A DNA stretch of 64,000 nucleotides from assembly GCA_964400355.1 (NCBI GenBank), contig CAYNTO010000001.1, positions 430,019 to 494,018 of the forward strand, given 5' to 3'. Origin of the DNA: an uncultured Pseudobdellovibrionaceae bacterium. GTDB taxonomy: Bacteria; Bdellovibrionota; Bdellovibrionia; Bdellovibrionales; JAGQZY01. The notes beneath the pieces were generated by a model that ran no database searches, was not told where the DNA came from, and saw nothing but the letters and a program-made list of their open reading frames with translations. Positions 25,569 through 53,805 of this stretch are shown piece by piece. Made by a program: the position numbers and the translations under genes. Each line of letters starts with the position of its first letter. The stretch's first letter is position 1.

Positions 25569-26039
25569 ATGAAACCATTCAGCACCTTAACTGAAATCAC
25601 ACCAACGGAAACCACGATCAAGGTCTTCGGTTATATCAATGAGTTTGCGCAATTCCCGGCATTTCCCACGACACCTAAGGTGATTGTGGATACGGAAGGC
25701 GTGACGGGAATGAACTCCGTAGGTACACGCAACTGGTGCAACTGGTTCGAGGGCGTGGGTCCGTCAACAAAAATTCTTCTTAGACACTGTCCCATCATAT
25801 TGGTAAAGAGTTTCAACCAGGTGAAGGGAAGTTATCCCAAACTTGCGGATGTGGAATCGTTCGCTGTTCCTTATTACTCGCCGTCGACCGATGAGGCGCG
25901 CAACGTATTTTTTAACAAAGGCACTGAGTACGTTAATGGTAAGGTCAATCTTCCACTCGTCAAAGACAATGACGGAAATGCCATGGATCTCGATGTGGAT
26001 CCACAAGCCTATTTCGCGTTCCTCGACAGACGCACGTGA
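25569..26039 (+). CDS. STAS-like (SiaC / anti-sigma-antagonist-like) protein, paralogue 2
   Basis: 156 aa with switch motif VTGMNSVGTRNWCNWF. It has the same C-terminal extension as paralogue 1 (FAVPYYSP...VKDNDGNAMDLDV..YFAFL). A kinase-like gene follows 14 nt downstream. Confidence 0.6.
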   Translation: MKPFSTLTEITPTETTIKVFGYINEFAQFPAFPTTPKVIVDTEGVTGMNSVGTRNWCNWFEGVGPSTKILLRHCPIILVKSFNQVKGSYPKLADVESFAVPYYSPSTDEARNVFFNKGTEYVNGKVNLPLVKDNDGNAMDLDVDPQAYFAFLDRRT

Positions 26040-26052
26040 GCACAGCCTACGT

Positions 26053-26952
26053 ATGATTTCAATCTATGACAGATATATTCAGTTCTTCCCAGAAAATTCG
26101 CGAGATGCGCTAAAGTCCTTGTTGCGATCCATCGAAACGGTTCTTTTGCCTTCGGAAGCGCATTTGGCTACTAAAGTTCTCCGTCGCGAGAACACAATCG
26201 TCGTATTGGAAAAAGGTGGAATGATCGAGTGTTTGCCTTTGATCGCCCTGGGTTTTCAACACTTTCTGCATTCATCCCGTGAGGACTTTTCACAGGAGCT
26301 TCTGGCCACCGCGATTATGATCAGCAAACCCAAATCATTCGCGAACGATCCGTTCGCTTTCTTTTTTAACGGACTTCGTGCATCTCCCGATCCGGCTCAC
26401 CAAAATATGCGCTGTACGTTTTCGAAAAACTCGGAAAAGTTGGCTCAACTTCAAAAGTTGGATGAGTTTTTAAAAACGCATCCCAAGGGTGCACGTCTTT
26501 CCGAGGTGATTGTGCAAGTGGCCGACGAGATGATCAGCAACGCTTTGTTCAGTGCACCCCGCGACAGACAGAATTTGGCTATGTATCAACATTTGCCCAG
26601 AACAAGCGATGTGAGCATGGCCGAAGGAAAAGAAGTGACTTTTTTTTCCTCCATGAATGATGAGCGCATCATTGTTGGTTGCGAAGACCTGTACGGCAGT
26701 ATGGACAGGGATCACATCATTAAAAATTTAAAGCGCATTTTTGATGGAGAACTCACAAAACCACACATGGGTTCCGCCGGCGCCGGTTTTGGCCTCCGCT
26801 ACATGATCGAAAACTCAGCCAGTTTTTACATGTACTGTGAACGCAACACGCGATCGGTGGTGGCTTGTGGATTCCTGCTCAAGGGAATGCGCTCGAACCT
26901 CACCATCGATCGCCATCTGCATATCGGGATACCCCAAGCGCCTCAGTTTTAG
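26053..26952 (+). CDS. RsbW/SpoIIAB/SiaB-like serine kinase (HATPase_c-like) with unknown N-terminal domain
   Basis: Track ORF 25843..26952 trimmed to ATG 26053 (MISIYDRYIQ). N-box-like VADEMISNALFSAP and G2-box-like GSAGAGFGLRYMIENS. The N-terminal 130 aa or so are unassigned. Confidence 0.6.
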   Translation: MISIYDRYIQFFPENSRDALKSLLRSIETVLLPSEAHLATKVLRRENTIVVLEKGGMIECLPLIALGFQHFLHSSREDFSQELLATAIMISKPKSFANDPFAFFFNGLRASPDPAHQNMRCTFSKNSEKLAQLQKLDEFLKTHPKGARLSEVIVQVADEMISNALFSAPRDRQNLAMYQHLPRTSDVSMAEGKEVTFFSSMNDERIIVGCEDLYGSMDRDHIIKNLKRIFDGELTKPHMGSAGAGFGLRYMIENSASFYMYCERNTRSVVACGFLLKGMRSNLTIDRHLHIGIPQAPQF

Positions 26953-26954
26953 AC

Positions 26955-26997
26955 CTTCCTAGAGTGAAAGCTCTATCACTTTCCGTGTAGCCGTGCG
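26955..26997 (+). repeat. 43-nt direct repeat, copy B (pairs with 14344..14386)
   Basis: CTTCCTAGAGTGAAAGCTCTATCACTTTCCGTGTAGCCGTGCG. It begins 3 nt after a stop codon, just as copy A does. Confidence 0.6.
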
Positions 26998-27018
26998 TGC
27001 AAACGCGCGGCTATTTTT
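26991..27018 (+). terminator. rho-independent terminator (weaker)
   Basis: CCGTGCG-TGCAAA-CGCGCGG stem (one G-U pair) followed by CTATTTTT. Confidence 0.5.
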
Positions 27019-27070: not shown

Positions 27071-28483
27071 TTATTGCGGTTTAAAGCGATAGATATGGCC
27101 ATCTCGCGAACCCACTACAATATGACCATTCCATACGGCGGGAGTGCTCTCGATGCAGCCTCCCGATTGCATTTTGAAGTGGCTCAACTCTTGGGGCGCC
27201 ATCGGGTTGTCGATGTTGTAGATTTTAAATCCACCGGGAGAGCATGTACCCACGAGCAAGCGATTGCCGATAACGATCGGCGACGACCAGGCGTGGAAGC
27301 CGATATCGAGAGTGGAGACGACCTCACCAGTTTCTTTGCTCACAGTGAGGAGATCGCCTTTGTGGGTGGCGGCGTAAATCACATCTTTACCAAGGGCGGG
27401 TGTGGCCCACAAACCGCCGACAGTGTTGTTGCCGGTGCGCACGTCGACCTTCCAGACGAGGGGGTTTTCTTTGTCGTACGGGTTGAGTTTTACCAGCTGG
27501 CCCACATCACGCGCTTGTTTGAGGAATCGCTCGTATTCGGCGGCCACATAAACAAAGCCATCGCTGTCCACCATCGGTGTGGCGTCCACATCATCGCCCA
27601 TCCAAAAATCGAACACGATTTCTGGTAAAAGATCTTTCACGTTTTTCAGATCTACGCCGAGTACACGACCCGCAGAGTTGGTCATGTACACGCGGCTTTC
27701 AAAAAGGGCCACAGAACTTTCGATGCTCGCGTTGCGATCGCCCGCATTTTGCAGCAGTTCTTTGTTCCAACCGCGCATACGCGCCTGAATCTCGGGCTTT
27801 ACACTCACTTTTCCCTGAGCATCCATTTGACGATTTAACTTCCAAGTGTAGAACCATCCGTTTTCGCCGCCGAAGATAAGATGATCGTTCACCACCGAAG
27901 AGTTACCATCCCAATCGTTGTTCCAAATGGTTTCGGGCACGCCGTCTTTAGCGTCGAGCGCCCAAATAAGTTCGGCCTCTTGGTTTTGCAGAGAGAGAAT
28001 GCGGTATTTGTTATCGCGCGAACCAAAGTACATCAGCGGAAAGCCATTGGGGTCGATGGTCACTGAGCCTTTGATGATGTCGCCGGTTTTGAATGGCTTG
28101 CGCGTGGCCTCGCCGGTTTCGAAATCGATAAAGTGGACGGAGCGATCATAAGTGCCAACGATAATTTCCATGCGGCCATCGGGGCGTTTCCAAATAGCGG
28201 GTTGGCCCGTCCATCCGCTGCCACACCAGGTTTTCCCATCGGATTGCGCACACATTCCACTTTTCGGGTAACGCCAATCCACTTGGTAGGCGTCGGCGAG
28301 CGGTCCTTGCCCGTACCAAGTGCGCGTGGGGTTGCCACGAAACTGGAGCAAACCTTCTGCCTCACCCCAAGGTTGTCCTACACTAGAAGGGGCGACATAC
28401 ACGTCGATCGCAAGCGCAGAAATAGAAAAGGAAAAACCAGCAAGAGCGAGAGATATTTTTTTAAGCATGAGCAATTTGTACAT
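27071..28483 (-). CDS. secreted PQQ-like / BamB-like beta-propeller repeat protein
   Basis: Signal peptide LALAGFSFSISALA. Repeated W/G-rich blades (GQPAIW, GGENGWFYTW, VGGLWATPA, VVGSRDGHIYRF) typical of PQQ-like propellers. Confidence 0.7.
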   Translation of the reverse strand: MYKLLMLKKISLALAGFSFSISALAIDVYVAPSSVGQPWGEAEGLLQFRGNPTRTWYGQGPLADAYQVDWRYPKSGMCAQSDGKTWCGSGWTGQPAIWKRPDGRMEIIVGTYDRSVHFIDFETGEATRKPFKTGDIIKGSVTIDPNGFPLMYFGSRDNKYRILSLQNQEAELIWALDAKDGVPETIWNNDWDGNSSVVNDHLIFGGENGWFYTWKLNRQMDAQGKVSVKPEIQARMRGWNKELLQNAGDRNASIESSVALFESRVYMTNSAGRVLGVDLKNVKDLLPEIVFDFWMGDDVDATPMVDSDGFVYVAAEYERFLKQARDVGQLVKLNPYDKENPLVWKVDVRTGNNTVGGLWATPALGKDVIYAATHKGDLLTVSKETGEVVSTLDIGFHAWSSPIVIGNRLLVGTCSPGGFKIYNIDNPMAPQELSHFKMQSGGCIESTPAVWNGHIVVGSRDGHIYRFKPQ

Positions 28484-28554: not shown

Positions 28555-28579
28555 GTTCACTTCCGTAGCGGAAGTGAAC
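28555..28579. repeat. REP-like palindrome, extended copy
   Basis: GTTCACTTCCG-TAG-CGGAAGTGAAC, with perfect 11-bp arms, intergenic. A half-site GGAAGTGGG sits just upstream at about 28541. Confidence 0.65.
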
Positions 28580-28711
28580 GTGAGGGCTATCTAGCTAAAA
28601 TCATAAAAGATTTGCGAATTGTCGCTGCTATTTCCAGATTCCATTTTTCGCCCACGAACATAAACGCCAGCGAAGATCACTGCCGTTCGATCTTCAAACT
28701 GGAACCGGATA

Positions 28712-28734
28712 TTCACCACCGTAGCGGAAGTGAA
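28712..28734. repeat. REP-like palindrome, degenerate copy
   Basis: TTCACCACCGTAGCGGAAGTGAA, with the left arm carrying 2 mismatches. Further half-sites lie at about 28762 (CGTTGAAGTGAA) and about 28795 (CACCCGCTACGGATGG). Confidence 0.5.
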
Positions 28735-28822
28735 GGTGTTCAAAAGGAATGCGCATTGCCGCCGTTGAAGTGAATGAATGAGCGTGCGTGTGTACACCCG
28801 CTACGGATGGCGCAGCTCTAAA

Positions 28823-33792: not shown

Positions 33793-34271
33793 TAGAAGAC
33801 ATCGTTAAAGAATTGAGCGCGAGAGGGCAAACCGTGTTTTGCGCGGAGAGCTGCACCAGTGGAAAACTGGCGGCGGCGTTCGGCGATATTCCTGGCGTGT
33901 CGCGTGTATTTTTAGGTTCCCTTGTTGCGTATTCCAATGCAATAAAGGAAGATGTGTTGGGCGTTAAATCCGCCACAGTAAAGAGTTTGGGAGCCGTAAG
34001 CGCTCCGACCGCAATCGAAATGGCACGACGGGCGAAAGTGCTTTCGAAGGCGACGTGGACTCTGGCCGTTACCGGAATTGCCGGTCCGTCTGGAGGATCT
34101 GTGGAGAAACCCGTGGGCACGGTTTTCTTCGCCATCGTTGGCCCAGGTGTTGAAGAGTGGGTCAAGTGCCGGTTCGACGGCGATCGCGCACAAGTGCAAG
34201 ACAAAGCCGTAGAGTACGCTATCAATTTATTAAACACTTACCTATTTAGGGGGAAGAATTATGGACGCTAA
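33789..34271 (+). CDS. CinA-family nicotinamide-nucleotide amidohydrolase domain protein
   Basis: [20 protein letters not shown]...[17 protein letters not shown]...GAVS signature of the CinA C-terminal (PncC) domain. ATGA overlap with the pgpA stop. The 3' end overlaps the recA start by 11 nt. Confidence 0.8.
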
Positions 34272-35415
34272 AAATAAATCAGACAAATTGGAAAAGTTAA
34301 AAGCTTTAGACCTGGCCGTATCCACTATCGAAAAACAATTCGGTAAAGGTTCGATCATGCGTTTGGGCTTAAACGAAAAACTCCACGACAATGTTGCCGT
34401 TATTCCATCGGGTGCATTGAGCTTGGATCTGGCTCTTGGAATTGGTGGCTACCCACGCGGTCGCATCGTCGAGATCTACGGACCTGAGAGCTCGGGCAAA
34501 ACAACGTTGGCTCTAACCGCCATCGCTGAATCACAAAAATTGGGTGGCGTGGCCGCTTTCGTCGATGCAGAGCACGCTTTGGACGTGACCTATGCTCGCA
34601 AACTTGGTGTGAACACTGAAGACGTGTTGATCTCTCAACCCGACACCGGTGAGCAAGCCCTCGAAATCGTAGAAACCCTCGTGCGCTCTGGCGCTATCGA
34701 CATTTTGGTGGTGGATTCTGTGGCAGCACTCACTCCACGTGCCGAGATCGAAGGCGACATGGGCGATAGTCACATGGGTCTTCAAGCGCGTTTGATGTCG
34801 CAAGCTCTTCGTAAGCTCACTGCGGCTATCAACAAGAGCAACTGTACGCTCATCTTCATCAACCAAATTCGTATGAAGATTGGTGTGATGTTTGGTAACC
34901 CTGAGACAACTACAGGTGGTAACGCCCTTAAGTTTTACTCGTCTGTTCGTTTGGATGTACGCCGTATCGGTGCCATCACGTCTGGCGAAGAGACTGTGGG
35001 TAACCGCACAGCTGTCAAAGTGGTGAAGAACAAAATGGCTCCTCCTTTTGCGAAAATTGAATTCGATATTATGTACGGCGAAGGCATTTCGGCCGAAGGC
35101 GACATTTTGGATTTGGGCGTGAAGTTCGAAATCATCGAAAAATCTGGCGCCTGGTACAGCTACCAAGGCGAGCGCATGGGTCAAGGCCGCGATAACTCCA
35201 AAGTTTTCCTCAAAGAAAACCCAAAGATTATGACGGAAGTGCGCAACAAGATCTACGCCCTCAAAGGTATCGCTGTTCAAAAATTGGCAGAAGAGCCAAC
35301 AAAAGACGAGCTCAAAGAGTCGAAGCTCGAGGCCAAAGATGACGCGCCGGCAGCTCCTGCGAAAGAAGGCAAGAAGCCCGCAAAAGCGGGTGCACGTCCG
35401 TCGCCAGCACACTAG
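34261..35415 (+). CDS. recA: recombinase RecA
   Basis: GPESSGKTT Walker A and the canonical core ([15 protein letters not shown]1/L2 loops). 384 aa with an unusual K/P/A-rich C-terminal tail. Confidence 0.97.
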
Positions 35416-35420
35416 TCCGA

Positions 35421-35439
35421 AAGGTGCCAGGCACCTTTT
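35421..35439 (+). terminator. recA terminator
   Basis: AAGGTGCC-A-GGCACCTT followed by TT(A), 6 nt after the recA stop. Identical 19-mer to the alaS terminator. Confidence 0.7.
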
Positions 35440-35455
35440 AGTCTAGCAACGCGTC

Positions 35456-35607
35456 GGTTGCGTCTCTATTCTGCGCTTTTAGTATTTTGCATTTTGAGCG
35501 GACGGCCATCCATGGCCTGCGCACTCGTCGGCGTTGCCGATCGCGTCCCGCTCTCGTGAGCCCGCTCTAAATACAAAATACTAAAAGCGCAGAATAGAGA
35601 CGCAACC
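35456..35607. repeat. long inverted repeat (34-bp perfect cores, about 46-bp arms with 2 mismatches, about 60-84-nt spacer)
   Basis: Left core 35456..35489 is GGTTGCGTCTCTATTCTGCGCTTTTAGTATTTTG. Right core 35574..35607 is its exact reverse complement, verified base by base. Confidence 0.85.
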
Positions 35608-36023
35608 TTTATTGCGTGGGAGGGCGGGTGTTGGGTTGGAGCCGGACTCGCGCGAAGCGTTCAGTATTTTGACGATTACAAGGTTGTAGAGTGCGGTAAA
35701 ATCTCCACCCATCGGGTGTCCTTGTTTAAGTATTTATATTTACTAAATCATAAACAATATTGATTAACAACTAAGGTTAATTCAAAAATGATGCGAAGAT
35801 GAGAAAGCCAGCACGAACGAGTCTTGTCGGCGGCGCATGGCATTTAAATCTATTTAACGATTAAAAAAATTTTATCTATTCTTCTAGACTGTACGAGGGG
35901 ACTAAAAGCAAATATTAGCTTTGCCAATATAAACTTTTCTAATTTACTATAGAAACACAAATTGAGTTTACTAAAGACGACCACGCAGGACGCGTGTTCT
36001 GGCAGTGGGTTCAGGAGTGCAAC

Positions 36024-36344
36024 ATGGATGTTCTGTTGGTTTTGATGTTGGTGGGTTTGACAGGGTTGTCATTGAGATACATCCGAGCTGTACGCCGTCT
36101 TAAAAAGGCAGAGATGCAGTTAGAGCAAGTTTTTCAGGAACAGTTTCCCGACGAGCAAGTGCGACTCGGGGGACTCGCGCGCTACCGTCAGTACAACAAC
36201 TTACTCAACACCGATGAGTCCCGGGCTCTACTCAATGAAGCGGAAAAGTGGATTCGTCGCTCGCAGCTCAAATTTTCATTGGCGCTTACGGTCGCGCTGT
36301 TATGGATCATTTGCTACGTGTGGACTTACGGTATTGCCGGTTAA
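36024..36344 (+). CDS. small two-TM membrane protein (hypothetical)
   Basis: ATG 36024 preceded by AGGAG at 7 nt. MDVLLVLMLVGLTGLSL and LALTVALLWIICYVWTYGIAG hydrophobic ends flank a charged helix. No family recognised. Confidence 0.4.
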   Translation: MDVLLVLMLVGLTGLSLRYIRAVRRLKKAEMQLEQVFQEQFPDEQVRLGGLARYRQYNNLLNTDESRALLNEAEKWIRRSQLKFSLALTVALLWIICYVWTYGIAG

Positions 36345-36373
36345 CAAGTCCTGCAATGGCTGCTGCGCGCATT

Positions 36374-39300
36374 TTAGGTGGCAGAATTGATCCAAACACC
36401 GAGTACCGTGCTCAAATTGTTGAGATTGACGGGCTTTGACAAATAATCATTAGCTCCGGCTTCGATACACTTTTCGTGATCTTCGCGCATGGCTTTTGCG
36501 GTGAGCGCAATGATTGGAATTTTTCGAACGCGAGGATCTTCATCTTTACGCAGGGTACGCATCGCCTCAAAGCCATCCATCTTAGGCATCATGATATCCA
36601 TCAGGACGATGTCGATATCTGTATGTTCCTTAACTGCGGCGACACCCTCGAGACCATTGCGGGCCATGCGCACATTAAAGCCTTTCGATTCGAGGGCATT
36701 GGTCAATGCAAACACATTTCGGATGTCATCGTCGACAATAAGTACAGTTTTCCCGGCAAAGGAGTGCGCTTGAGAGCGCAGTTTAGAAATCATCAATTGC
36801 TTGTCGCCAGGAAGCATGGACTCAATTCGGTGTAAGAATAAGTTCACTTCATCGAGTAGGCGCTCTGGAGAACGTACGCCTTTTATAATGATGCTCTCGG
36901 AGTACTTGCGTAGGTATTCTTCTTCTTCAAACGATAGATCCTTACCGGTGTAGATCACTATGGGTGGGAGCGAAATCTCCATTTCGCGCAGTTTGTCTAA
37001 GAGATCGTGGCCGGACATATCTGGCAAGCTCAAATCCAAAACCACGCAATCGATGCCTTCGGTTTGTAGGGCGACAATTGCTTCTTTTCCAGTCTTTACG
37101 GGTTGAACGACGATGTCGTCGCCGGCAATAAGTTCGGTTATTGCCTTTAATTGGACGGCATCATCTTCAACAACAAGCACACTGCGCATCTTTGCGGAAA
37201 GCATCTTTTGAATGCGACCGATAGCTGAGCGCACTTTTTCGATGGTCACTGGTTTTGTGAGATACCCGAGTGCACCCATACGCAGAGCATTCTGTTGAAA
37301 ATCCATCGCAGAGATCATATGCACCGGTACGTGGCGTAGGCGCGAGGATTTTTTAATGGTCTCCAAAATAGAAAGGCCACTCACACCCGGAAGTTTTATA
37401 TCGAGGAGAATCGCGTCTGGGACATAGCGCTCTAAAATGGCCATTGCGATGTCGCCATCTTCGGCCTCGAGCACCTGAAATCCGTTGGCCACGGCGACAC
37501 CGACAATAGAAGCGCGAAACTGAGCCTCATCTTCTACAACTAAAATGGTCTTTGCCGCTTTCTTCAATTTACCAATGGCTTCTGTTGCGAGCGCTTCCAA
37601 ATATTCGGAGCGAGGCGCCGTGACCTGCGAGGCTGTCGGCGCGGGCTTTTGCTCAGCCATTATGTAGTTGTTCTCAATCGCTAGTGAGTCGTGTTTTACG
37701 GTCTCCAGCTGAGTCGGAATGGTGAGGTAAAATGTGCTGCCCTTGCCCTCTTCACTCTCAAGGGCGATGCTGCCTCCCAATAAGGCTGCGAGTTCGCGCG
37801 ATATGGTAAGACCCAAACCTGTGCCACCATATTTTCGGCTGATGGAGCTATCGGCCTGTTCAAAGGCCTCAAAAATTAAACTTTGGCGATCTGCCGGAAT
37901 TCCGACTCCGGTATCGGTTACGGCGAAAGTAATAGTGTCCTTTTTCAAAGAAAGCTCCGCTGTGAGCTTCACGCCGCCTGACTCGGTGAACTTAATGGCG
38001 TTAGAAATAAAATTTCGAAGTATCTGCTCCACGCGCTGGCGATCCGTAGAAAGTACAAAATCGTCGATGTCCCCTTTGGTAGTGATTTCAAATTTAAGAT
38101 GCTTCGCATCCATTTGCGGAGTGAATGTGCGTTTCTTCGATGCGAGCAACGACTTCAGAGAGAATTTGTCCGCACGCACGGCAAGTTTACGCGCTTCAAT
38201 TTTTGAGAGATCGAGAATATCACTGATGAGAAGCAATAAATCATTTCCGGCATTATTTATGGATCTGGCAAATTCTTTTTGCTGCTCGGTCAGCGTGCCT
38301 TCCTTGTTTTCAATAAGGAGCGTTGATAGAATCATCAAACCATTGAGCGGAGTGCGTAGCTCATGAGACATTTTAGCCAGAAAATCCGATTTATACTGTG
38401 TAGACTTTGCCAGGTCGCGCGCTTTCGCCTCCAATTCCAATTGTGTGACATTGAGATCGCGATTGCGAGTCGAGAGCGTCTCCTGCTGCGCTACAAGGGC
38501 GCGCGTTTGAGCTTCGAGCTCCTCGTTATTGGTGCGCAGTTCCTCTTGTTGCGATTGCAATTCCTCTGACTGAGCTTGTGTTTCTTCGAGAAGATCCTTG
38601 AGCCGCGCGCGCGTGAGCGCGGCATTGACGCTAGTGCCGATTGTTTCCAGTGTGTGGTTCAACACATCGCGGACGTCTTCGCTGATTGCTTGAAAAGATG
38701 CCATTTCCAGAATCCCGATGACATTCCCCTGAAAGCTAATCTTTGCGATCGCGATACTTCGCGGGAGCGATTCTCCAAGAGATGTGGATAGATGCCAAAA
38801 ATCTTTTGGCACTTTGTCGACGATCCAAAATCCATCCCGCTTGAGAGCCGTAGTGAACAAAGTAGAACTCACTGGAATAACCTTGCTGTCACTTTCGTCT
38901 TTAACTCCCAAGCTCGATAGAGCAACCAGCGTGTGATCCGAGTTATAGATTAGCAATCGACCAGCAAGAAACCCAAATTTTTCCGTAAGGTACTGAATAA
39001 TTTTGTCCGCTGTTTCGCGGGCGCGTTCATCGTTGAGGGCCAGTTGAGCGATTTCTGATACTACGGAATTTGTAAACGCTGCGGCGGTTGCACGGCGTTG
39101 GTAGCGGAGAATCTGTTGAGCCCCCAGAATTATACCGGCAATGCTCAGCACACTTGTCAGTAAAAGCACGGTGTAAAAGGTGATTCGGCTGCGTTCTGCG
39201 GCGAGCGTCCTGGGCGCGAGTAGCGCCTGTTCTTCGTCGCGCATGTTTTGCAATTGTTCTTCGAGAAGCTGCAAGGTCGCTTTACTGCCTAATGAGAGCT

Positions 39301-39709
39301 CATGGAGCTCTTGGGTTGTTTTTTTGTCCTTTGCAAGAGTGTACATGTTTCTTAGGAGTTCAAATTTTTTAGTTAACAAGTTATCTAGAGCAGTACATTG
39401 CTCCTGCTGTCGCGGATTATCCAGCGTCATCATTCTAATACGATTCGAGTGGAGGAAGGCTTCGCTCTCGGCCTTTGCGAGATCGGCGCGATGATCCAGG
39501 TGCGGGCTACCCATTTGATTGGCGATACTCGCTTCGCCGTCTTTAACGGAGGAGGACACCAATTGGAGTTCGCTCAATACGCGATTGGTGTGGGCAACCC
39601 ACCAGGAATTGTTACTCACATTGGTAAAGTGGTAGAGAAGTAATCCCGCATTAAATGCCAGGAGAATGACAAGGGCGCAGACGACAATGATAACGGATTT
39701 TCGATTCAT
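36374..39709 (-). CDS. hybrid sensor histidine kinase (CHASE3-like, GAF-like, HisKA, HATPase_c, three receiver domains)
   Basis: H-box FLAKMSHELRTPLNG, N/G boxes (RNFISNAIKFT, DTGVGI, GGTGLGL). Three REC domains carry phospho-acceptor contexts ILLDIKLPG, VVLDLSLPDMSG and VLMDIMMPKMDG. Start at ATG 39709 (MNRKSVIIVV). Confidence 0.9.
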   Translation of the reverse strand: MNRKSVIIVVCALVILLAFNAGLLLYHFTNVSNNSWWVAHTNRVLSELQLVSSSVKDGEASIANQMGSPHLDHRADLAKAESEAFLHSNRIRMMTLDNPRQQEQCTALDNLLTKKFELLRNMYTLAKDKKTTQELHELSLGSKATLQLLEEQLQNMRDEEQALLAPRTLAAERSRITFYTVLLLTSVLSIAGIILGAQQILRYQRRATAAAFTNSVVSEIAQLALNDERARETADKIIQYLTEKFGFLAGRLLIYNSDHTLVALSSLGVKDESDSKVIPVSSTLFTTALKRDGFWIVDKVPKDFWHLSTSLGESLPRSIAIAKISFQGNVIGILEMASFQAISEDVRDVLNHTLETIGTSVNAALTRARLKDLLEETQAQSEELQSQQEELRTNNEELEAQTRALVAQQETLSTRNRDLNVTQLELEAKARDLAKSTQYKSDFLAKMSHELRTPLNGLMILSTLLIENKEGTLTEQQKEFARSINNAGNDLLLLISDILDLSKIEARKLAVRADKFSLKSLLASKKRTFTPQMDAKHLKFEITTKGDIDDFVLSTDRQRVEQILRNFISNAIKFTESGGVKLTAELSLKKDTITFAVTDTGVGIPADRQSLIFEAFEQADSSISRKYGGTGLGLTISRELAALLGGSIALESEEGKGSTFYLTIPTQLETVKHDSLAIENNYIMAEQKPAPTASQVTAPRSEYLEALATEAIGKLKKAAKTILVVEDEAQFRASIVGVAVANGFQVLEAEDGDIAMAILERYVPDAILLDIKLPGVSGLSILETIKKSSRLRHVPVHMISAMDFQQNALRMGALGYLTKPVTIEKVRSAIGRIQKMLSAKMRSVLVVEDDAVQLKAITELIAGDDIVVQPVKTGKEAIVALQTEGIDCVVLDLSLPDMSGHDLLDKLREMEISLPPIVIYTGKDLSFEEEEYLRKYSESIIIKGVRSPERLLDEVNLFLHRIESMLPGDKQLMISKLRSQAHSFAGKTVLIVDDDIRNVFALTNALESKGFNVRMARNGLEGVAAVKEHTDIDIVLMDIMMPKMDGFEAMRTLRKDEDPRVRKIPIIALTAKAMREDHEKCIEAGANDYLSKPVNLNNLSTVLGVWINSAT

Positions 39710-39845
39710 ACTTACGGGACTAGCCACAATTTTTACCTCTGAGACGAATTGCAATATCGCGAAGAAGAATCAACGCTATCGCAGCCCGCTGGCAAAGGCA
39801 AGCGGGTGGCGGCGCCGACGGGAGGAGTTGATTGTGAAGTTTTTG

Positions 39846-41006
39846 TCAAAGCAAAGCGTGGAGCTTTTTGATCACCGATTCTCGGTTCTGTTTATTTACT
39901 ACAAGCGTTAAGTTTGTGCTGTCCTGAAGAATGTCGTGAACGCGTTCTCCGTCTATGCATTTCATCGCCTGCGGGAGCAGATCAGACGACACGGCTCCGT
40001 GGCAGGTCATGGTTACAGTCGATAGTTCCTCAAAGTGAGTTGCGCCCATCGACTTGTAGTCGGCGCTTGTGCCTTCGCCCACCACCAATAGGCGAGTCTG
40101 AGTATCGGTAGCATGAGCGGCAAGCAATTGTGGGTAAGGAAGCTCTTTGTCTTTGTAAGTGTTAAAGAATGTCTGTACCAGTTGGGCCGGCTCGGTTTTT
40201 GCAAAAAAAATGCGATGGACATTTTTGTGGCTATTGATGGAAAGTATTTTCTGTTCTTCGATCATAAGGTCAACTCCGTGTACCAGGGTTTTTTCGTTGG
40301 GATTTTCAAAGTGGGAAAGCCGTAGGGGAATTTGCAGCACGCCAGCGAGTTCGGCTGCGCGATAGTGAAGTACTTTTCCGCCCCAATAGGTCATATCCAT
40401 CAGATGTTTGTAAGTGAGTTCAGGTAAATGTTTTGCGGAAGAAACCACTTTGGGATCGGCAGAAAACACGCCGCCGACATCCTTTTTGAAATCACAAATC
40501 TTACTTTTAAAGTGCGCGGCCATTGCCACAGCAGTGGTGTCGGAGCCGCCGCGGCCGAGAGTGGTCACTTCCTTTTCTTTTTCCGAAACGCCCTGGAAAC
40601 CGGCGAGGACGACCAGTTCTCCTTTTTTTAAATGTTGCTCGAGGCGAACTGGACGTGTGGCTTGGATGCGAGCATTGCCATGAGAGTTGTCGGTAATGAT
40701 TCCGGCCTGACTCCCGGTGAGGGAAATCGCTGGAACACCACGATCATTCAAGGCCAGGCTGAGCAGCGCCATTGAGATGCGCTCGCCCGAAGTCAGTAAC
40801 ATGTCCAATTCTCGACGCTTTGGCTTTGGTGCTACGGATTGCGCCAACTGAATCATATCGTCGGTGGTTTTGCCCATCGCGCTCACAACGACAATAATGG
40901 GGGAAGGGTCTGCTTGCTTTTCTGCCAAGAGGTAATCGGCAACAAATTTAATTTTTTCGATATCTGATAGGCTCGCCCCACCAAATTTATAGACCCTTAC
41001 GTGCAT
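39846..41006 (-). CDS. lysC: aspartate kinase
   Basis: VYKFGGASL and VVVSAMGKTTDDM kinase motifs, GRGGSDTTA, and a C-terminal ACT-like region. Confidence 0.9.
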   Translation of the reverse strand: MHVRVYKFGGASLSDIEKIKFVADYLLAEKQADPSPIIVVVSAMGKTTDDMIQLAQSVAPKPKRRELDMLLTSGERISMALLSLALNDRGVPAISLTGSQAGIITDNSHGNARIQATRPVRLEQHLKKGELVVLAGFQGVSEKEKEVTTLGRGGSDTTAVAMAAHFKSKICDFKKDVGGVFSADPKVVSSAKHLPELTYKHLMDMTYWGGKVLHYRAAELAGVLQIPLRLSHFENPNEKTLVHGVDLMIEEQKILSINSHKNVHRIFFAKTEPAQLVQTFFNTYKDKELPYPQLLAAHATDTQTRLLVVGEGTSADYKSMGATHFEELSTVTMTCHGAVSSDLLPQAMKCIDGERVHDILQDSTNLTLVVNKQNRESVIKKLHALL

Positions 41007-41247
41007 CCCTCATGTATAGCCGAACTCCTATCACCGGTCCAGTTGCATAAAGATACCGGTTTAAAAAACACTAAAATTTTTGCCCTGATCTTTGATCCAA
41101 AGTGGGACGGTGGAGGCGTTATCATTATTCAAAATTGATGTTTTTATGGAAGAATAAGAGGGTTGCCATCGTTCAGGAATTCCATGGGATTGGGCACTCT
41201 GGTTATGTGGCCAGGTTTTGAACGGTGTTTCACCAAGGAGGGCTGAA

Positions 41248-42960
41248 GTGCGCATGTGGGCGATCGTTATTGCGGCATTGATAATAGGCGGATGTGTTAG
41301 TTCCAAAAAAGACGGGTTTACGCGCTTCAAAGAAGCCGCCAGTTCAGGTCAAAGTTGCGGCAAGCTCCTCAAAAAATTGCCGGTTCAAAAGGAATCGCAA
41401 ACGTGGTCAGCGGCTCAACAGCAGTCCGTTGAGTTTGCGTACACCACTTGCTTAACGGGTTACCGCGATCTGGCCTCACACGCTTCGGCAATCGAATTCG
41501 TAAAAACTGTGTTTGAAGAACTCGGTGTGCAATACAAAGAAAACACCGAAAAGGGCAGTGTGTCTTTGGTTGGAAGCCTCGAGCCGAACTCCCCAAAAGA
41601 AACCGTCATGATGGTACATGCCACCGATATGATCAATGCTCAAATGATAGACCAAGGCCAGAAAGTTCCGCTATGGGGACAGTCCAATTCCAATTCGCGC
41701 GCTCTCGGTGTGTTGCAGATGATGGCGATGGCATTCGCCTATAAAAAGAAACCTGAGGAGCGCAAATTCAATTTGGCGTTAGCGGTCACCGAACAAGGTC
41801 AATGGAAAGGTGTCGCGAACGATTTTAAAAAAATCACCATTGTGTTGAATGAGGGCGGGCACGCATTTTCTAAACAAAATAAAAATATGTTTCTTATAGG
41901 CAGTGAACAAAAGGGTGGTGCGTGGTTACGCATTCGCCACAAATCACCTGATCGTCTGCTTTCTCATTTAGACAATCTGCTCGCCGTGTTTATGCCCCAT
42001 GAGCCACGCGATTTTAGTGGGCCCGGCAAATGCCACTTGGTGACCATGAACACCAGCGATCAGCAGATCAATTTGGTTCCCAATCGTGTAGAGATGATGA
42101 TCCGTTGTAAAGGCGTCTCGGGCAGCGTTGTTGGCCAAGCATTTGGCCACTCGAATGTATCGATTCATTTGCGCCCCGAAAGTGACATGTACAAGGTGTC
42201 GCTGGAAATTGCCCATCCAAAAGAAAACAAGTATGGCCAGCTCTCAGCCCTACAGATGGCTGCGCAGGGCCTTCAAAAACTTTCTATTATTCCGTTTCGA
42301 GACTGGTCTTTTGAGCAACCTCAATTTTACGGACACCAGCGAACTCCGGCTTCGGTCAATTTCGTCAGTAAAGCAAAGAACGTTTACCCCCAACAATCGG
42401 ATTGGGAAGGCCTGCTCTGGGATCTGGATGAATCGGGCGAGTGGTCCGGGGTTTCTGCGAACATCTCGCCCGCTAAACGCGACGGACCGGAAAAATTATT
42501 TCGCACTTCCTGTTCATGGACGGGCTTTCATGCCGATCAAGAAGGAGCGGAGGCTTTGGTAGATTGCCGTTTGGCGCGCTCCTCGGGCCGCTTGGGAGCG
42601 TTGGAAGATCAGGACGCTAAGGATTTTATTGCCGCCATTCAAAAGCGCGCTAAAGATCCATCATTACAAATTGAAATGATTAAAGGTTGGAATTCGATCA
42701 CCAGTGAAAGCACTCACAAGTTTATTGATTTCGCAAAAGAACAAATTAAAAAAATCTATCCTTCCAGTGAAACCACGACTTGGATGTCGCCGGCGTCGAC
42801 GGTGGTGTACTCCGAAAAGTCTAAGATTCCCACCTATGGTTTCAACCCAATATTGCGCGAGGATATTCTCGAGTTGAACGACAAAACGATCACCCAAGAT
42901 CAGATATTTACTGCCAATCAAATTTATTCAGGCGCGATTTCACGCCTGATTGCTTACTAA
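41248..42960 (+). CDS. lipoprotein, weak resemblance to M20/M28 metallopeptidase fold
   Basis: AAGGAGG lies 7 nt before GTG 41248 (ATG 41254 is the alternative). Lipobox ALIIGGCVSS. VMMVHATDMI and LNEGGHAF vaguely recall M20 metal-ligand segments but look degenerate. The functional call is weak. Confidence 0.5.
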   Translation: MRMWAIVIAALIIGGCVSSKKDGFTRFKEAASSGQSCGKLLKKLPVQKESQTWSAAQQQSVEFAYTTCLTGYRDLASHASAIEFVKTVFEELGVQYKENTEKGSVSLVGSLEPNSPKETVMMVHATDMINAQMIDQGQKVPLWGQSNSNSRALGVLQMMAMAFAYKKKPEERKFNLALAVTEQGQWKGVANDFKKITIVLNEGGHAFSKQNKNMFLIGSEQKGGAWLRIRHKSPDRLLSHLDNLLAVFMPHEPRDFSGPGKCHLVTMNTSDQQINLVPNRVEMMIRCKGVSGSVVGQAFGHSNVSIHLRPESDMYKVSLEIAHPKENKYGQLSALQMAAQGLQKLSIIPFRDWSFEQPQFYGHQRTPASVNFVSKAKNVYPQQSDWEGLLWDLDESGEWSGVSANISPAKRDGPEKLFRTSCSWTGFHADQEGAEALVDCRLARSSGRLGALEDQDAKDFIAAIQKRAKDPSLQIEMIKGWNSITSESTHKFIDFAKEQIKKIYPSSETTTWMSPASTVVYSEKSKIPTYGFNPILREDILELNDKTITQDQIFTANQIYSGAISRLIAY

Positions 42961-42961
42961 C

Positions 42962-44710
42962 TTATTGCTGGACGGGGACATCAAACCGCGGCAGTGGCAG
43001 ACCTGGTAATCCCAGGTCTGGAGCGGGTGCGATCAATGCGGGGGCGGTCTCCTGGCGGGTGACGTAGTCGCTTGAGCGAGTCATGTCATCGACAACGCGC
43101 GTGAGAGACTCCACCCAGTCCTCGGTGATCACTACCGGTGCTGGAGGTGCGGCTGCCGCACCTCCAGCGGGATCCGCTATGTAGCTCGGCATCATTGCGC
43201 GATAGTTGGTAAACATGTGCGAAGCGTAGCGCAGATCTTTGAGAGCCTTGCTGGCACACACATCTCCTATGCCTTCTGCTGCCGCGCCGTGCTTGCGCTT
43301 TTCGTACCACTTGGCCTCTTTAAAGAAGGTGCAATAGTTGTCAACCACGTCGGTGGCGATTCCAAAGTAGCGTCCCAAGTTTTGCAATTTATCAAAATAG
43401 GTTTCAATGGCGGCGCGATCGTCTGCATTCACTTGATCACGGGCAATATCCAACGACTCTAAAATTTGCCCGTAGTATTCAAAGGTGTCGCCCCAAACAG
43501 TGCCACCCCAGTTGAGCCGCGGCCACTTTATACCAGGGTAGGAGTTTTTCAGCACACGTAGAGTGTACACCACGCCCATCAGGTGATTGTCGAGGTGACT
43601 GTTCCACTCTCGGGCTTCGACGATGAGTTGCTTTAAAAACAACGGACCCTGTTCGGTCACCATAAACTTTTGAATGCTGAGCATTTCCGAGCCGATGTCT
43701 TCCAATCCCAGATCTGCCTTTAAATTATTGTCCTCAAGGGAACGAACGCGCAGTGGAATCCAAGTGAGCGTCTTTAGAGAACGATACGTGTGCGTGCCAA
43801 GGCGCTCGGTGTAAAGCTTGTCGATCTGTTTAGCAATGGCGGCGATTTTATTTTCAAAAGCCACAGCCCAGATATCTTGAGTCTTAATCTCTTTTTCCGT
43901 TTTTCTCTCGCGCGCCTTTGTAGACTCTTCTTCAACCAGAAGAATGATTTCGCGGCACTCGGGGCAATTGTCGCGCAGAATTCCAATCTGTTTTTCGAGA
44001 ACACCCTGAAGTTGCATCAATCGAGAAACAGACTCGTAGGGATTGACCAGTTTTTCCAGTTCGCGGCGGTAGTCAAAAAGCGAGCACATACTATCGGCAT
44101 AAGCCATACGTTGCTCGACGTCTTTGAACTTGTAACCTTGGCGGTTTTCTTCGATAGTTTTCATCGCTTTGAGAAAACCGGTGATCACATCGCCGGCCAC
44201 TTGAATGGTCATGCCTGTTTCCGGGCCGCCGATCACCGAAAGAATTTTTGAACCTTCGCCGATGAGACTGGTCACGAATTCCAGAGACATGCCCTGTTTG
44301 TCTTCGTCGAAGCAGGCATCATTCCCGGTAAGTACAGCGAGAAGATTGGAAGTCGTCACAGTGACTTTCTCCACGTAGCTCTCCACGCGTTTTTGCTCGG
44401 CATCGGTAAGGCCTTGAGATTGGCCTTTTGTAATGAGGGCCATAATGTTATCGCGTTCGGCAGTTACCAGATTGGAGAGGTCGCTCACGTCCGCGGTAAT
44501 GCCTTTGCAGTTGGCTTCTTCCTTGATGGCTTTTTTGAGTTCGAGTAGTTTTTTGCGAAAATCTTTAATGGCTTCGTTGGAAGCGGGACACTGGAGCACC
44601 GGAAATGAGGAGTACCCTGTTTCCTCAGTTTCGTTGTCGACCGGTACTTGTGCAAAGGTGTTGGTTGAAAATATCCCCAATACAAGAATAAGTGCAATGC
44701 GCAGATTCAT
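42962..44710 (-). CDS. secreted helical Cys-containing hypothetical protein
   Basis: GGGAGG RBS. MNLRIALILVLGIFSTNTFAQ signal peptide. 582 aa, mostly helical-looking, with a Pro/Ala-rich C-terminus. No family recognised. Confidence 0.6.
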   Translation of the reverse strand: MNLRIALILVLGIFSTNTFAQVPVDNETEETGYSSFPVLQCPASNEAIKDFRKKLLELKKAIKEEANCKGITADVSDLSNLVTAERDNIMALITKGQSQGLTDAEQKRVESYVEKVTVTTSNLLAVLTGNDACFDEDKQGMSLEFVTSLIGEGSKILSVIGGPETGMTIQVAGDVITGFLKAMKTIEENRQGYKFKDVEQRMAYADSMCSLFDYRRELEKLVNPYESVSRLMQLQGVLEKQIGILRDNCPECREIILLVEEESTKARERKTEKEIKTQDIWAVAFENKIAAIAKQIDKLYTERLGTHTYRSLKTLTWIPLRVRSLEDNNLKADLGLEDIGSEMLSIQKFMVTEQGPLFLKQLIVEAREWNSHLDNHLMGVVYTLRVLKNSYPGIKWPRLNWGGTVWGDTFEYYGQILESLDIARDQVNADDRAAIETYFDKLQNLGRYFGIATDVVDNYCTFFKEAKWYEKRKHGAAAEGIGDVCASKALKDLRYASHMFTNYRAMMPSYIADPAGGAAAAPPAPVVITEDWVESLTRVVDDMTRSSDYVTRQETAPALIAPAPDLGLPGLPLPRFDVPVQQ

Positions 44711-44835
44711 ATAACCTCCCACCTGGTAAGAATCTCAAGTCAGGGACAATCTATATGGAACGCGGTGGTGGAGGAAGAGCAGGCATGACGAGGGTGAAAT
44801 AATTCCCTGGCGAACAGAGATTTTTACATCGTTCT

Positions 44836-45723
44836 CTAGAGATGTTTTTTGTAGCTCTTGTTCACGCGATATTCGTTTACGTACTTCATCAAGTCGGCCA
44901 CCTTTGGCGCTAATAGCGGTCCCCCCGTTTTTTCGGAGATAGACGTGCCAACAATAACGGCGTCGACGAGGGGTAAGATATCGGGCGCATTGTCTCTGGA
45001 AAAACCCGAGCCCACAACAACTGGCACGGAGCGGACCCCTTTGCGCGCCTTTGCCAGTCTTTTGAGATCTGGTGATGAACCCGATTGCGAGCCCGACACG
45101 ATAACGCCATTACTGCCTAGCAGCTGTGCGGTTTTAGCCGATTGATCGATGGAAATTTTTGGATTGATCATCTTTGAGTACTTCACCTGAATGTCGGTAA
45201 GTAGAACCACGTTCTCGGCGTTCAGTTCCTTGCGGTATTTGATAAGCCCTTCGGGATCAATGGGCACTGTAATATCATTGGCTTCGACCTCATCGCTAAA
45301 GAAATCGATACGCACAAATTGAGCTTGAGAAGCCTTAGCCAACTTGAGTGTGGCGCCCGGGAAGTGCCAGAGAATCTCCACGCCGATAACCAGATTGGGA
45401 TAGCTTTCGATGACTTTGCGAGTGAGAGCGGCCATCATCTCTTGTTCCCACTGGGGAATTTCACGACTGAGGATTTCACCGCCGCGAAACTCAATCAGCA
45501 GACCGTCCATCTTGCCGTCGGTGGCAATGCGCGCTTGTTCTAAAAGCCATTTTTCGGCGGGAGTGTATGAGTTGGGTTTTAAACGCTCCACCATTATGGC
45601 GGCGATCACCGGTTTGGAGTTTTTAAACAGGCGCATGAATTCATTGGCCTGCGCGCTTTGCAGAGGCAGAAAGAGGGGCGAAAGAAAAAGTGACGTTAAA
45701 AGGATCCAAGATGATTTTGTCAT
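44836..45723 (-). CDS. TIM-barrel-like protein (BtpA/SgcQ-like) with N-terminal signal peptide
   Basis: LLTSLFLSPLFLPLQSAQA signal-like N-terminus. C-terminal PVVVGSGFSRDNAPDILPLVDAVIVGTSISEK resembles the phosphate-binding end of BtpA/SgcQ-type barrels. Family call is tentative. Confidence 0.45.
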   Translation of the reverse strand: MTKSSWILLTSLFLSPLFLPLQSAQANEFMRLFKNSKPVIAAIMVERLKPNSYTPAEKWLLEQARIATDGKMDGLLIEFRGGEILSREIPQWEQEMMAALTRKVIESYPNLVIGVEILWHFPGATLKLAKASQAQFVRIDFFSDEVEANDITVPIDPEGLIKYRKELNAENVVLLTDIQVKYSKMINPKISIDQSAKTAQLLGSNGVIVSGSQSGSSPDLKRLAKARKGVRSVPVVVGSGFSRDNAPDILPLVDAVIVGTSISEKTGGPLLAPKVADLMKYVNEYRVNKSYKKHL

Positions 45724-45765
45724 AGTCTGGATTTACCATTGAAGGCGTGTGCGGGCCATCAAAAA

Positions 45766-47229
45766 TTACTGGGTGAGAAGCCGTTGTAACAGGCGCGGGA
45801 GGCCTTTGAGGAGATCGGACGGCATCAAGGAATTGGGGTGGTTTTTTTGAACCCACAGGTCCGCCATCCATCCGTGAAGATAGGCCCCACTCAGCGCAGC
45901 TAACGGCGCGCTCAAACCCTGAGCTCGCAAACCAGACACTATGCCGGTGAGCACGTCTCCGCTACCGGCTTTCGCAAGCGCCGCATTGCCCGTGGGTATA
46001 ATAAAGACATTGCCCTCGACGGCCACCAAGGTGCGAAATCCCTTGAGAACAACGATTGCGCCCAAGGCCTTGGCCGCGTCTCTTGCGTGTTGCGGGCGAT
46101 TTGACTCGATAGTGGTCACGTCGCGAATTTTCAGAAGTCGCGAAAGCTCTTTGGTGTGTGGGGTGAGTATCCAGTCCGATCGTAGAGCTATTTTTGGCGA
46201 TGCGTAAGCGATGTTTGTGAGTGCATCGGCATCCAGAATCACCTTTTCGATGTGATTGGCATGGAGCAAACGCAACTGGGATTCTTGCTCGCTGCCTGTG
46301 CCCCAGCCGGGCCCCACAGCGTAGGTGAACCTGTTATCAATGGGAGATCTCTTTTCCACAAGAAGTTCAGGAACATCGCTAAAAACTGCGGAATCCTCCG
46401 ATTGCAAACTCACATAGCCGCTTCCCACACGGTATGCGGCGCGCGCTGTAAGAAGGGCAGCGCCCCACATTCCGGGGCTGCCCGCCCATACCTTCACGTG
46501 ACCATGAGTGGATTTATTGGATGTACTTTTTCTATTAGGGAACGCCGCTACAAAATCGCGATGGGTGAATACAAAGTGAGAGTTGGCGTGTGCGGTAACG
46601 GCCTCTTTTGAAAACCCAATGTTCAGTTTATGCACGCGGCCGCAAACGCGCGGGCCGTCTTGAATGAGTTGCCCGAGTTTTCGAACTCCAAATGTGAGTG
46701 TGTGATCAGCTTCCACGGCTGCGCCGCGAACGGCTCCAGTGTCGGCGTCCAGTCCACTGGGAATATCGAGACTTATGGTCTGTGAGCGGCCGGCGCGGCG
46801 CAAGCGATTGAGCTCTTCGATGAGTTGCGCGAGAGATCCGTGGATCTCTTTGCTCAAACCAATTCCAAAGAGGGCATCAATGTAAACGTCAGCTGCCGGC
46901 AAGACGCCCGAAAATTTTTTTACTGGAGCATTCACATTTTTGATTTGGTGATTGAGTGCGTTAGTTCTCGGCGGAACCACACTGTAACATTCGCTGCGCC
47001 TATAATTTTTGGCCAACAACTCGCGGAAGACAACGACTCCATCGCCGCCGTTATTACCTGAGCCGCACAGTATCACAAATTTTGTGTATTTATCGGGAAA
47101 TAAACTTTGAATTTTTTCTACAGCCGCAAGACCGGCGTTGTTCATTAATCGCAGCTCGGATATAGAGAGCTGCTTTTGTGTCTGTAGATCGATGGTTCGG
47201 GTTTGAGCACGGGTTGCGATGCGTATCAT
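45766..47229 (-). CDS. nnr: bifunctional NAD(P)H-hydrate repair enzyme (epimerase/dehydratase)
   Basis: YjeF-N motif CGSGNNGGDG and the carbohydrate-kinase-like C-terminus with AKAGSGDVLTGIVSG. Start at ATG 47229 (MIRIATRAQ). The track start at 47265 is TTG. Confidence 0.85.
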   Translation of the reverse strand: MIRIATRAQTRTIDLQTQKQLSISELRLMNNAGLAAVEKIQSLFPDKYTKFVILCGSGNNGGDGVVVFRELLAKNYRRSECYSVVPPRTNALNHQIKNVNAPVKKFSGVLPAADVYIDALFGIGLSKEIHGSLAQLIEELNRLRRAGRSQTISLDIPSGLDADTGAVRGAAVEADHTLTFGVRKLGQLIQDGPRVCGRVHKLNIGFSKEAVTAHANSHFVFTHRDFVAAFPNRKSTSNKSTHGHVKVWAGSPGMWGAALLTARAAYRVGSGYVSLQSEDSAVFSDVPELLVEKRSPIDNRFTYAVGPGWGTGSEQESQLRLLHANHIEKVILDADALTNIAYASPKIALRSDWILTPHTKELSRLLKIRDVTTIESNRPQHARDAAKALGAIVVLKGFRTLVAVEGNVFIIPTGNAALAKAGSGDVLTGIVSGLRAQGLSAPLAALSGAYLHGWMADLWVQKNHPNSLMPSDLLKGLPRLLQRLLTQ

Positions 47230-50736: not shown

Positions 50737-51543
50737 TTACTCCACAGTAAAAGAAACGGTGCCCACCTTCTCTAGGCGCGCTCGTGCAATCTGCCCTTTC
50801 TCGAGTGCTATTGCGGTTGTGGCGGCTCCGGCAAGGACAATGCTGCCTTTTGGAAGCGCGCGACCATCCTGGCTCAGCAGGCTGACGAGCTCACAAAGGG
50901 ATTTTAGTGGATTGCCGAGTATGGCGCCGCCCGTAGCAGTTTCCTGAACGACATCGCCCGTAAGCAATTCGATTTTTAGTGAAGACCAGTCGAGAATCGT
51001 CGCTGCTGGAACGCTTTCGCCGAGCACGAAATGGGAGGACGATGCATTATCGGCAATCACATCTGGCAGCGAAAAATATTTAAACCCCTGGTATCGGGAA
51101 TCGAGGATTTCCAGCGCAACACCGATGCGATCGCAAACTCCGGGAACGTCCTCCACGTTGAGGGAGCCCGAGAGTTCGCGGTTGGTGATAAAATAAATTT
51201 CCGGTTCGGTTTTTGGGTGAAGGCGTTTCTCTAACGAAAATGCCGCCAAGTTTTTTACCTGCATCACATCAGTTAAAACTCCAAAAATAGGGGTATGAAG
51301 CCCCATTTGATCCATCTTGGCTTTGGAGGTCAGTCCCATTTTATAGCCGATCACTTTTTCGCCACTTTCGAGGCGCAGTTCGATACCGCGGTTCTGCACT
51401 TTATAACTATCTGCGAGACTGTATTCTCCATGTATTTTCGAGAACGGCTCGACCTCCGCGGTGTTGAGTCGCGCTCGGTGCAACGTATGTGCAAAAGATT
51501 CGATCTGATCTACGGTAAGGCTTTTATCAGCTGGGTTTTTCAT
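50737..51543 (-). CDS. 2-oxopent-4-enoate hydratase / 4-oxalocrotonate decarboxylase family protein
   Basis: MhpD/XylI-like pattern (YKVQNRGIELRLESGEKVIGYKMGLTSKAKM; PKTEPEIYF). Diverges from the kynurenine operon. Start at ATG 51543. Confidence 0.65.
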   Translation of the reverse strand: MKNPADKSLTVDQIESFAHTLHRARLNTAEVEPFSKIHGEYSLADSYKVQNRGIELRLESGEKVIGYKMGLTSKAKMDQMGLHTPIFGVLTDVMQVKNLAAFSLEKRLHPKTEPEIYFITNRELSGSLNVEDVPGVCDRIGVALEILDSRYQGFKYFSLPDVIADNASSSHFVLGESVPAATILDWSSLKIELLTGDVVQETATGGAILGNPLKSLCELVSLLSQDGRALPKGSIVLAGAATTAIALEKGQIARARLEKVGTVSFTVE

Positions 51544-52317: not shown

Positions 52318-52333
52318 TGAGGTCAGTGAAATT

Positions 52334-53803: not shown

Positions 53804-53805
53804 TT

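Follow-up and report, generated by a model that had tools for sequence, protein, structure and literature searches.

The 152-nt inverted repeat that follows recA in the DNA analyzed here, a window of 64,000 nucleotides from a Bdellovibrio-like bacterium, is best explained as a lineage-specific foldback insertion of MITE-like shape whose likely effect is that of a back-up terminator or 3' stabilizer for the recA mRNA; we put the probability of this reading at roughly 40%. Insertion, or the remnant of an insertion, is suggested by a combination of features, namely, extra DNA at a junction that varies between relatives, an atypical composition, a lack of coding capacity, the MITE-like shape, and the lack of any family to which the sequence could be assigned. 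The element would then be a non-coding foldback insertion, perhaps a MITE-like orphan or the relic of such an element, and its molecular effect would most likely be passive, exerted at the RNA level and on the plus strand. We file it as a single example of the bacterial intergenic foldback elements, an orphan in the collections searched.

The element consists of two 46-nt arms, 96% complementary to each other and separated by 60 nt (Table 1). A sequence-only reading of this DNA had described an imperfect inverted repeat of 46 bp, perfect over 34 bp and with two inner mismatches, and a repeat search together with exact matching reproduced this architecture and its position. The 34-mer GGTTGCGTCTCTATTCTGCGCTTTTAGTATTTTG occurs exactly at 35456-35489 on the plus strand and at 35574-35607 on the minus strand and, allowing up to three mismatches, nowhere else in the 64-kb window (shuffles giving a match, 0/100). 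Both mismatches between the arms, T35495/T35568 and C35490/A35573, fall within the inner 12 nt, and the second of them becomes a G-U wobble in minus-strand RNA. In the composition profile the arms are AT-rich and resemble the native spacer. The G+C content of the core and of the right flank reaches 0.70 to 0.725, against about 0.49 for the window and 0.15 to 0.3 for the conserved AT-rich part of the spacer, and the G+C-rich center of about 60 nt that had been pointed out earlier is thus real. The small palindromes reported at the two ends are likewise present. On the plus strand, the long stem is followed at once by TTTATT (35608-35613); on the minus strand the next bases are GACGCGTTGC, with no U-tract.

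Table 1. Features at and around the inverted repeat downstream of recA (positions in the 64-kb window).
Feature	Position	Strand	Basis and details
recA	34261-35415	+	384-aa ORF; gene upstream of the inverted repeat
Primary recA terminator hairpin, 9 bp	35412-35446	+	AAAGGTGCC.GGCACCTTT then TTAG; found as an inverted repeat
Left mini-palindrome, GCAAC-GCGTCG-GTTGC	35446-35461		Formed between the flank and the first bases of the arm
Extra DNA relative to L001, ~225 nt	35447-35671		Spans 9 nt left of the inverted repeat, the repeat itself, and 64 G+C-rich nt right of it
Sub-threshold match to TwoAYGGAY (RF01731)	35452-35611	-	Score of 35.1 bits (gathering score, 43); full-length model
Left arm	35456-35501		Repeat search; outer 35456-35489 perfect
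Core, 60 nt, G+C-rich	35502-35561		Mini-hairpins 35504-35517 (GGCC-ATCCAT-GGCC), 35519-35546, and 35550-35561
Hairpin GGCC-AUGGAU-GGCC	35504-35517	-	Single AYGGAY/GGA loop, CsrA-site-like; cmscan against RF01731
Right arm	35562-35607		Repeat search; outer 35574-35607 perfect
Right mini-palindrome, ACGCAA-CCTTTA-TTGCGT	35600-35617		Sequence read, motif scan
Spacer block conserved with L001	35747-35913	+	blastn; putative promoter region of the downstream gene, outside the element
Downstream small gene	35994-36344	+	116-aa ORF, no Pfam family; homologue at L001 2210-2527

The hairpin is far beyond chance. As RNA, either strand of the element folds at about -107 kcal/mol (z, -10.9 for plus and -12.8 for minus), and as DNA it folds at -64.8 kcal/mol (z, -12.2); the core folded alone is just slightly more stable than its shuffles, with a z score of about -2 on both strands. 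It is the sole inverted repeat of at least 25 nt in the 64-kb window, and among perfect inverted repeats with loops of up to 400 nt in a further 1.44 Mb of bacterial DNA, the longest measured 24 nt. Inverted repeats noted in that other DNA lie at L024 1944-2073, L043 7502-7614, and L070 6403-6489, with perfect arms of 22 to 24 nt and loops of 43 to 84 nt.

A structure of this kind could in principle be created by an assembly or library artifact, that is, a foldback chimera rather than genomic sequence. The element occurs once, and its support from a second assembly covers the junction of right arm and flank, with the interior of the hairpin falling outside it. This support comes from a Logan contig of the same organism, L086 (SRR15237804), matched via the small downstream protein, which is 99.98% identical to window positions 35578-46344 and so contains the right-arm/flank junction; one more Logan contig with this junction was reported. 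Its first base corresponds to window position 35578, 30 nt within the right arm, a start that points to a break of the k=31 de Bruijn graph at the perfect 34-bp inverted repeat. The left side is covered by another contig, L087 (SRR15237806), which ends within recA. The element also lies in the middle of the window between normal genes, in a source contig of 558 kb by the RecA record, and its arms differ at two positions and enclose a unique core, neither of which a simple foldback chimera would give. A second assembly and arms that are not identical lead us to regard an artifact as extremely unlikely. As a more general observation, Logan-type assemblies seem to fragment at perfect inverted repeats of at least 31 nt, as short-k assemblies do at long perfect inverted repeats, and the ends of their contigs may point to such elements.

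The closest database proteins to the RecA of the window are those of metagenome-assembled genomes labeled Pseudobdellovibrionaceae, Bdellovibrionaceae, or Bdellovibrionales, the best non-self match being 90% identical. The recA gene ends in a terminator hairpin of its own, with a folding energy of -17.8 kcal/mol (z against shuffles, -3.9) and a U tail of UUUU only. The long inverted repeat begins 10 nt beyond this hairpin, which confirms the placement of the element just after the recA terminator. In the ORF list, the 578-nt spacer downstream of recA (35416-35993) contains no ORF of 60 aa or more, the largest being 43 and 44 aa, as the sequence-only reading had noted for the surroundings of the element.

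A long inverted repeat 3' of recA was absent from all 11 relatives compared (L001 to L007, L046, and L088 to L090), whose RecA proteins are 65 to 90% identical to that of the window. Three of these (L006, L007, and L046) were taken from among the matches listed in a RecA locus search, in which most of the others belonged to unrelated phyla. Only L001 shares the small downstream gene. Its recA spacer measures 365 nt, against 578 nt in the window, and BLAST-supported homology resumes at 35747, with a weaker correspondence, by eye, from about 35672. By this comparison the extra DNA amounts to about 225 nt rather than 152 nt and the inverted repeat sits off-center within it, but L001 (RecA, 90%) is too diverged to fix the boundaries of an insertion. 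The extra DNA could have been what remains of a relative's cargo gene, but neither tblastx nor blastn matched it to the sequence downstream of recA in nine relatives, and this origin was rejected. Within its G+C-rich right flank, 11 nt beyond the right arm, the extra DNA carries GGGAGGGCGGGTGTTGGG (35618-35635, plus strand), the sole canonical G-quadruplex motif on either strand of the 64-kb window when defined as four G3 runs with loops of 1 to 7 nt, for which 0.78 is expected per window.

The locus itself is variable. Between recA and a conserved amino-acid-kinase gene (39846-41006), the window (35416-39845) holds the 116-aa gene and a CHASE3 hybrid histidine kinase gene, while the same interval holds a 226-aa gene in L088, a 255-aa gene in L089 and L090, and a 360-aa gene in L002. 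The differences in gene content place the element at the recA edge of a variable segment, and we infer that it arrived there by insertion. The interval as a whole is a hot spot of gene turnover next to recA, with genes that are mostly unannotatable in L002, L088, L089, and L090.

The main rival to a foldback insertion is a local inverted duplication, in which a template switch or hairpin-primed repair copied part of the spacer in reverse and left a neutral, non-mobile repeat. Such an event would account for a repeat that occurs once and has no target-site duplication (see below), and no homologue was found; the AT-rich arms also resemble native spacer. Possible traces of a local source are the sequence GCGTTCAGTATTTTG at 35657-35671, which matches an arm at 13/15 positions and lies, by eye, at the aligned position of the L001 terminator tail, and CTTTTAGT, which is common to the arm and the recA terminator tail. 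However, these arm-like matches are marginal, with shuffles doing as well in 20/500 cases (for 35657-35671) and in 43/500 cases, and the comparison with L001 is not significant. Derivation of the arms from an ancestral terminator tail was therefore rejected, the local alignments being marginal or not significant against shuffles. Moreover, a duplication leaves the G+C-rich core and right flank unexplained, and no relative is near enough to reveal an ancestral single arm. We consider this origin rather unlikely, if clearly worth bearing in mind.

The sequence-only reading had left the choice open between a MITE-like element, a structured non-coding RNA, a recombinase or transposase site, and a protein-binding site. 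The shape and non-coding nature fit the first of these: terminal inverted repeats, a length (152 nt) below about 500 bp, and no transposase ORF. What could not be found was a second copy, a target-site duplication, or a transposase in the window. In the window, blastn-short and a 34-mer search with up to three mismatches recovered the two arms and otherwise chance 9- to 12-mers. Outside it, an arm 21-mer had no match in the GTDB representative genomes, two different arm 21-mers had none in the JGI metagenomes, and the gapped terminal pattern, a core 20-mer, and an inner-arm 19-mer had none in IMG/VR; distant blastn searches of plasmids and phages gave chance matches only (E of at least 0.1). 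In terms of the copies expected of a MITE or REPIN, the count is thus one in 64 kb and none in the public collections searched. The left flank ends in GCGTC and the right flank begins with TTTATT, with no abutting direct repeat of 2 to 10 nt. A Pfam scan of the 57 ORFs of the window revealed no transposase, integrase, recombinase, invertase, or Y1-transposase domain, and with no other match to the arms either, an autonomous insertion sequence (IS) with matching terminal repeats is not apparent in the 64 kb. Since a target-site duplication is lacking and the copy count is limited to 64 kb, MITE status is not demonstrable. The sequence-only reading had stated that a single, untranscribed copy lacking from all relatives would speak against a MITE or non-coding RNA (ncRNA) family; with one copy in the window and none at this site in the 11 relatives, both family readings are weakened.

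In its general build, the element resembles the Correia, ERIC/IRU, and RUP elements: it measures about 150 nt, ends in long inverted repeats, contains no ORF, lies between genes just past a 3' end, and could form a long RNA hairpin. The long hairpin RNA of such elements could change the termination or stability of mRNA. Correia, ERIC/IRU, and RUP elements are, however, multi-copy, usually show target-site duplications (e.g., TA), and can be linked to an IS family, whereas the element described here is single and lacks a duplication, a parent IS, and any relative in the collections searched. REPINs offer a second parallel. These are inverted REP doublets that are mobilized by RAYT transposases and reach copy numbers in the tens to hundreds; both of their arms are imperfect palindromes of roughly 20 to 25 nt, and a RAYT gene is present. 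Two inverted units joined by a spacer into one long hairpin, palindromes at the ends, and the lack of a target-site duplication are all reminiscent of a REPIN. In contrast, the element has one copy in 64 kb, and the window lacks a Y1-transposase domain.

Conceivably, the repeat acts in cis as DNA, either as the target of a recombinase, invertase, or transposase, in the manner of an inverton or att-like site, or as a protein-bound cruciform. The perfect dyad symmetry, with mini-palindromes nested in the core and at both ends, would suit such a role, as would its location bordering an interval of variable gene content. With one mismatch apiece, the arm ends GTTGCGT and ACGCAAC come close to the integron core-site consensus, GTTRRRY/RYYYAAC. 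Nevertheless, no recombinase, integrase, or invertase domain was detected among the scanned window proteins, the 60 nt enclosed by the 46-bp arms would make a very short segment for site-specific inversion, and the window contains no site matching the inverted repeat at the other edge of the variable interval. It is on such grounds of context and geometry that the recombinase-site, inverton, and attC readings fail, and we hold a role as a cis-acting DNA site to be very unlikely; the recombinase or transposase target that had been suggested finds no transposase, integrase, or invertase in the window to go with it.

Several specific candidates were rejected. An integron attC site has the order R''(RYYYAAC)...R'(GTTRRRY), a stem whose imperfect pairing leaves extrahelical bases, and a setting with intI or a cassette array; in the element the motif order is reversed and the 34-bp pairing is perfect, not bulged, and the window has no integrase domain. 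For an inverton, the core lacks a promoter-like site and the window a recombinase. A retron msr/msd would be accompanied by a reverse transcriptase, of which the window shows no domain, and just 60 nt lie between the arms. A type I toxin was dismissed because the 35-aa frame lacks a Shine-Dalgarno sequence and has its start within the stem. Y RNAs and tRNA-like elements were set aside because Rfam gave no match, and a PacBio adapter because its sequence is different.

At the gathering threshold, Rfam gave no match in the whole 64-kb window, leaving the suggestion of a structured ncRNA family without a family to name. The best match under permissive thresholds was TwoAYGGAY (RF01731; Weinberg et al. 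2010, PMC2864571), on the minus strand, with an E value of 4e-4 to 1e-3 in searches of 281 to 751 nt; it was lost when the whole window was searched. According to its family description, TwoAYGGAY has two AYGGAY loops and a P1 stem that is "often very large," often 24 bp; it is multi-copy in at least one genome, that of Psychromonas, and has been proposed to bind CsrA (PMC4333381). The likeness is evident in the long closing stem (46 bp here) over short hairpins, in the non-coding, intergenic setting, and in one loop identical to the consensus, CCAUGGAUGG, which the cmscan alignment matches exactly. Of the two AYGGAY loops needed, however, the element has one (AUGGAU, 35508-35513, minus strand), the other loops of the core hairpins being AAC and ACGA, and the first hairpin of the model is replaced by an unrelated, branched segment of 43 nt. 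Moreover, the host is Bdellovibrio-like, whereas TwoAYGGAY is known from Clostridia, gamma-proteobacteria, and gut samples, and the lack of homologues in the collections searched leaves the element without covariation.

Control hairpins put the score into perspective. The unrelated inverted repeat of L024 reached 36.7 to 37.7 bits (E, 3e-5 to 5e-5) with a plant microRNA (miRNA) precursor model, that of L043 reached 26.7 bits (E, 2e-3) with an miRNA precursor model, and the plain recA terminator of L004 scored 35 bits against Phe_leader. In other words, the 35.1 bits of the element are what a long hairpin alone earns, and membership in TwoAYGGAY is unsupported; it was rejected on account of the score below the gathering threshold, the single AYGGAY loop, and the equal scores of the controls. 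The spurious miRNA-model matches of L024 and L043 suggest caution with sub-threshold Rfam matches on long hairpins in general.

A minus-strand small RNA of the TwoAYGGAY build, in which a long stem with GGA-loop hairpins would bind and titrate CsrA, is a further rival reading. RF01731 is the best match and spans the full length of the model, very long P1 stems are common in this family, and CsrA binding has been proposed for it (PMC4333381). The exact CCAUGGAUGG loop, together with the one of the two arm mismatches that turns into a G-U pair on the minus strand only, provides weak hints of a minus-strand RNA. Against these stand the score of 35.1 below 43, the single AYGGAY loop, and the scores of 27 to 38 bits, with E values down to 3e-5, of unrelated long hairpins, along with the 35 bits of a terminator. 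The minus strand also lacks a sigma-70-like promoter and has no U-tract beyond the stem, and no homologues were found in any collection searched. Taken together, we judge such an RNA improbable. A crude motif scan detected no csrA-like ORF in the window. More speculatively still, the element might be the first member of a Bdellovibrionota-specific class of foldback RNAs, transcribed from the minus strand and antisense to the recA 3' end, in which a long stem, a three-hairpin junction, and a CsrA-type GGA loop would reflect an architecture, and perhaps an ancestry, related to TwoAYGGAY; we see this as a long shot.

Returning to the plus strand, the preferred reading of a foldback insertion assigns the element an effect on the recA transcript, with which it is presumably co-transcribed. 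A transcript that passes the weak-tailed first terminator would fold into the 46-bp stem with its three small hairpins, followed by UUUAUU. The folded stem should bring RNA polymerase to a halt, keep 3' exonucleases from advancing, and shield the downstream gene. Given the four-U tail of the first terminator and the UUUAUU after the long stem, read-through recA transcripts would be expected to end or be stabilized there. This arrangement is similar to that of a Rho-independent terminator in that a stable stem on the plus strand is followed by UUUAUU, downstream of and co-directional with a gene. A usual intrinsic terminator has a G+C-rich stem of 5 to 14 bp and a loop of 3 to 8 nt and then a U-tract. 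The element differs in its 46-bp stem, which, as the sequence-only reading had remarked, is far beyond what a terminator needs, in its 60-nt branched cap, and in the presence of a conventional terminator 10 nt upstream. The U-rich tail is present on the plus strand only, and a consensus scan did not call the long hairpin.

If the element is merely an orphan foldback insert, its import is small, one more hairpin that landed beyond a terminator and borders a variable interval. Lying on the 3' side of the recA transcript, however, the element would influence how much of a central DNA-repair protein is made if it altered termination or mRNA stability at all. Should the full genome hold more copies, they would define a new MITE/REPIN-like family in a poorly sampled lineage of predatory bacteria, and if the element were transcribed and bound CsrA, it would represent an uncharacterized TwoAYGGAY architecture beyond the Firmicutes and gamma-proteobacteria.

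Other repeats and gene clusters in the window deserve mention in their own right. The 64 kb contain no tRNA genes. An element of 77 nt occurs twice, at 14330-14406 and 26941-27017, with 81% identity between the copies. Each copy begins about 11 nt before the stop codon of one of two unrelated-looking genes (13733-14341 and 25843-26952) and comprises a small hairpin followed by a G+C hairpin with a T-run, which could represent a duplicated 3' element or a small RNA. A palindromic motif, CACTTCCGTAGCGGAAGTG, is found four times, at 13665-13691, 17750-17776, 28556-28582, and 28712-28738. Two of these copies, 156 nt apart, share the spacer upstream of a minus-strand beta-propeller gene (27071-28483), and another precedes the gene at 13733-14341 by about 50 nt; the motif looks like an operator for a dimeric regulator. 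A 1,581-aa ORF (15713-20458) without a Pfam family contains internal paralogous repeats of 68 to 75% identity (16778-19848). Finally, the region 50737-58383 holds a cluster of enzymes of the tryptophan/kynurenine-pathway type in this Bdellovibrio-like genome, including a putative cyclase, an aldehyde dehydrogenase, a RidA-like protein, a 3-hydroxyanthranilate dioxygenase, an amidohydrolase, a kynureninase, and an FAD monooxygenase.
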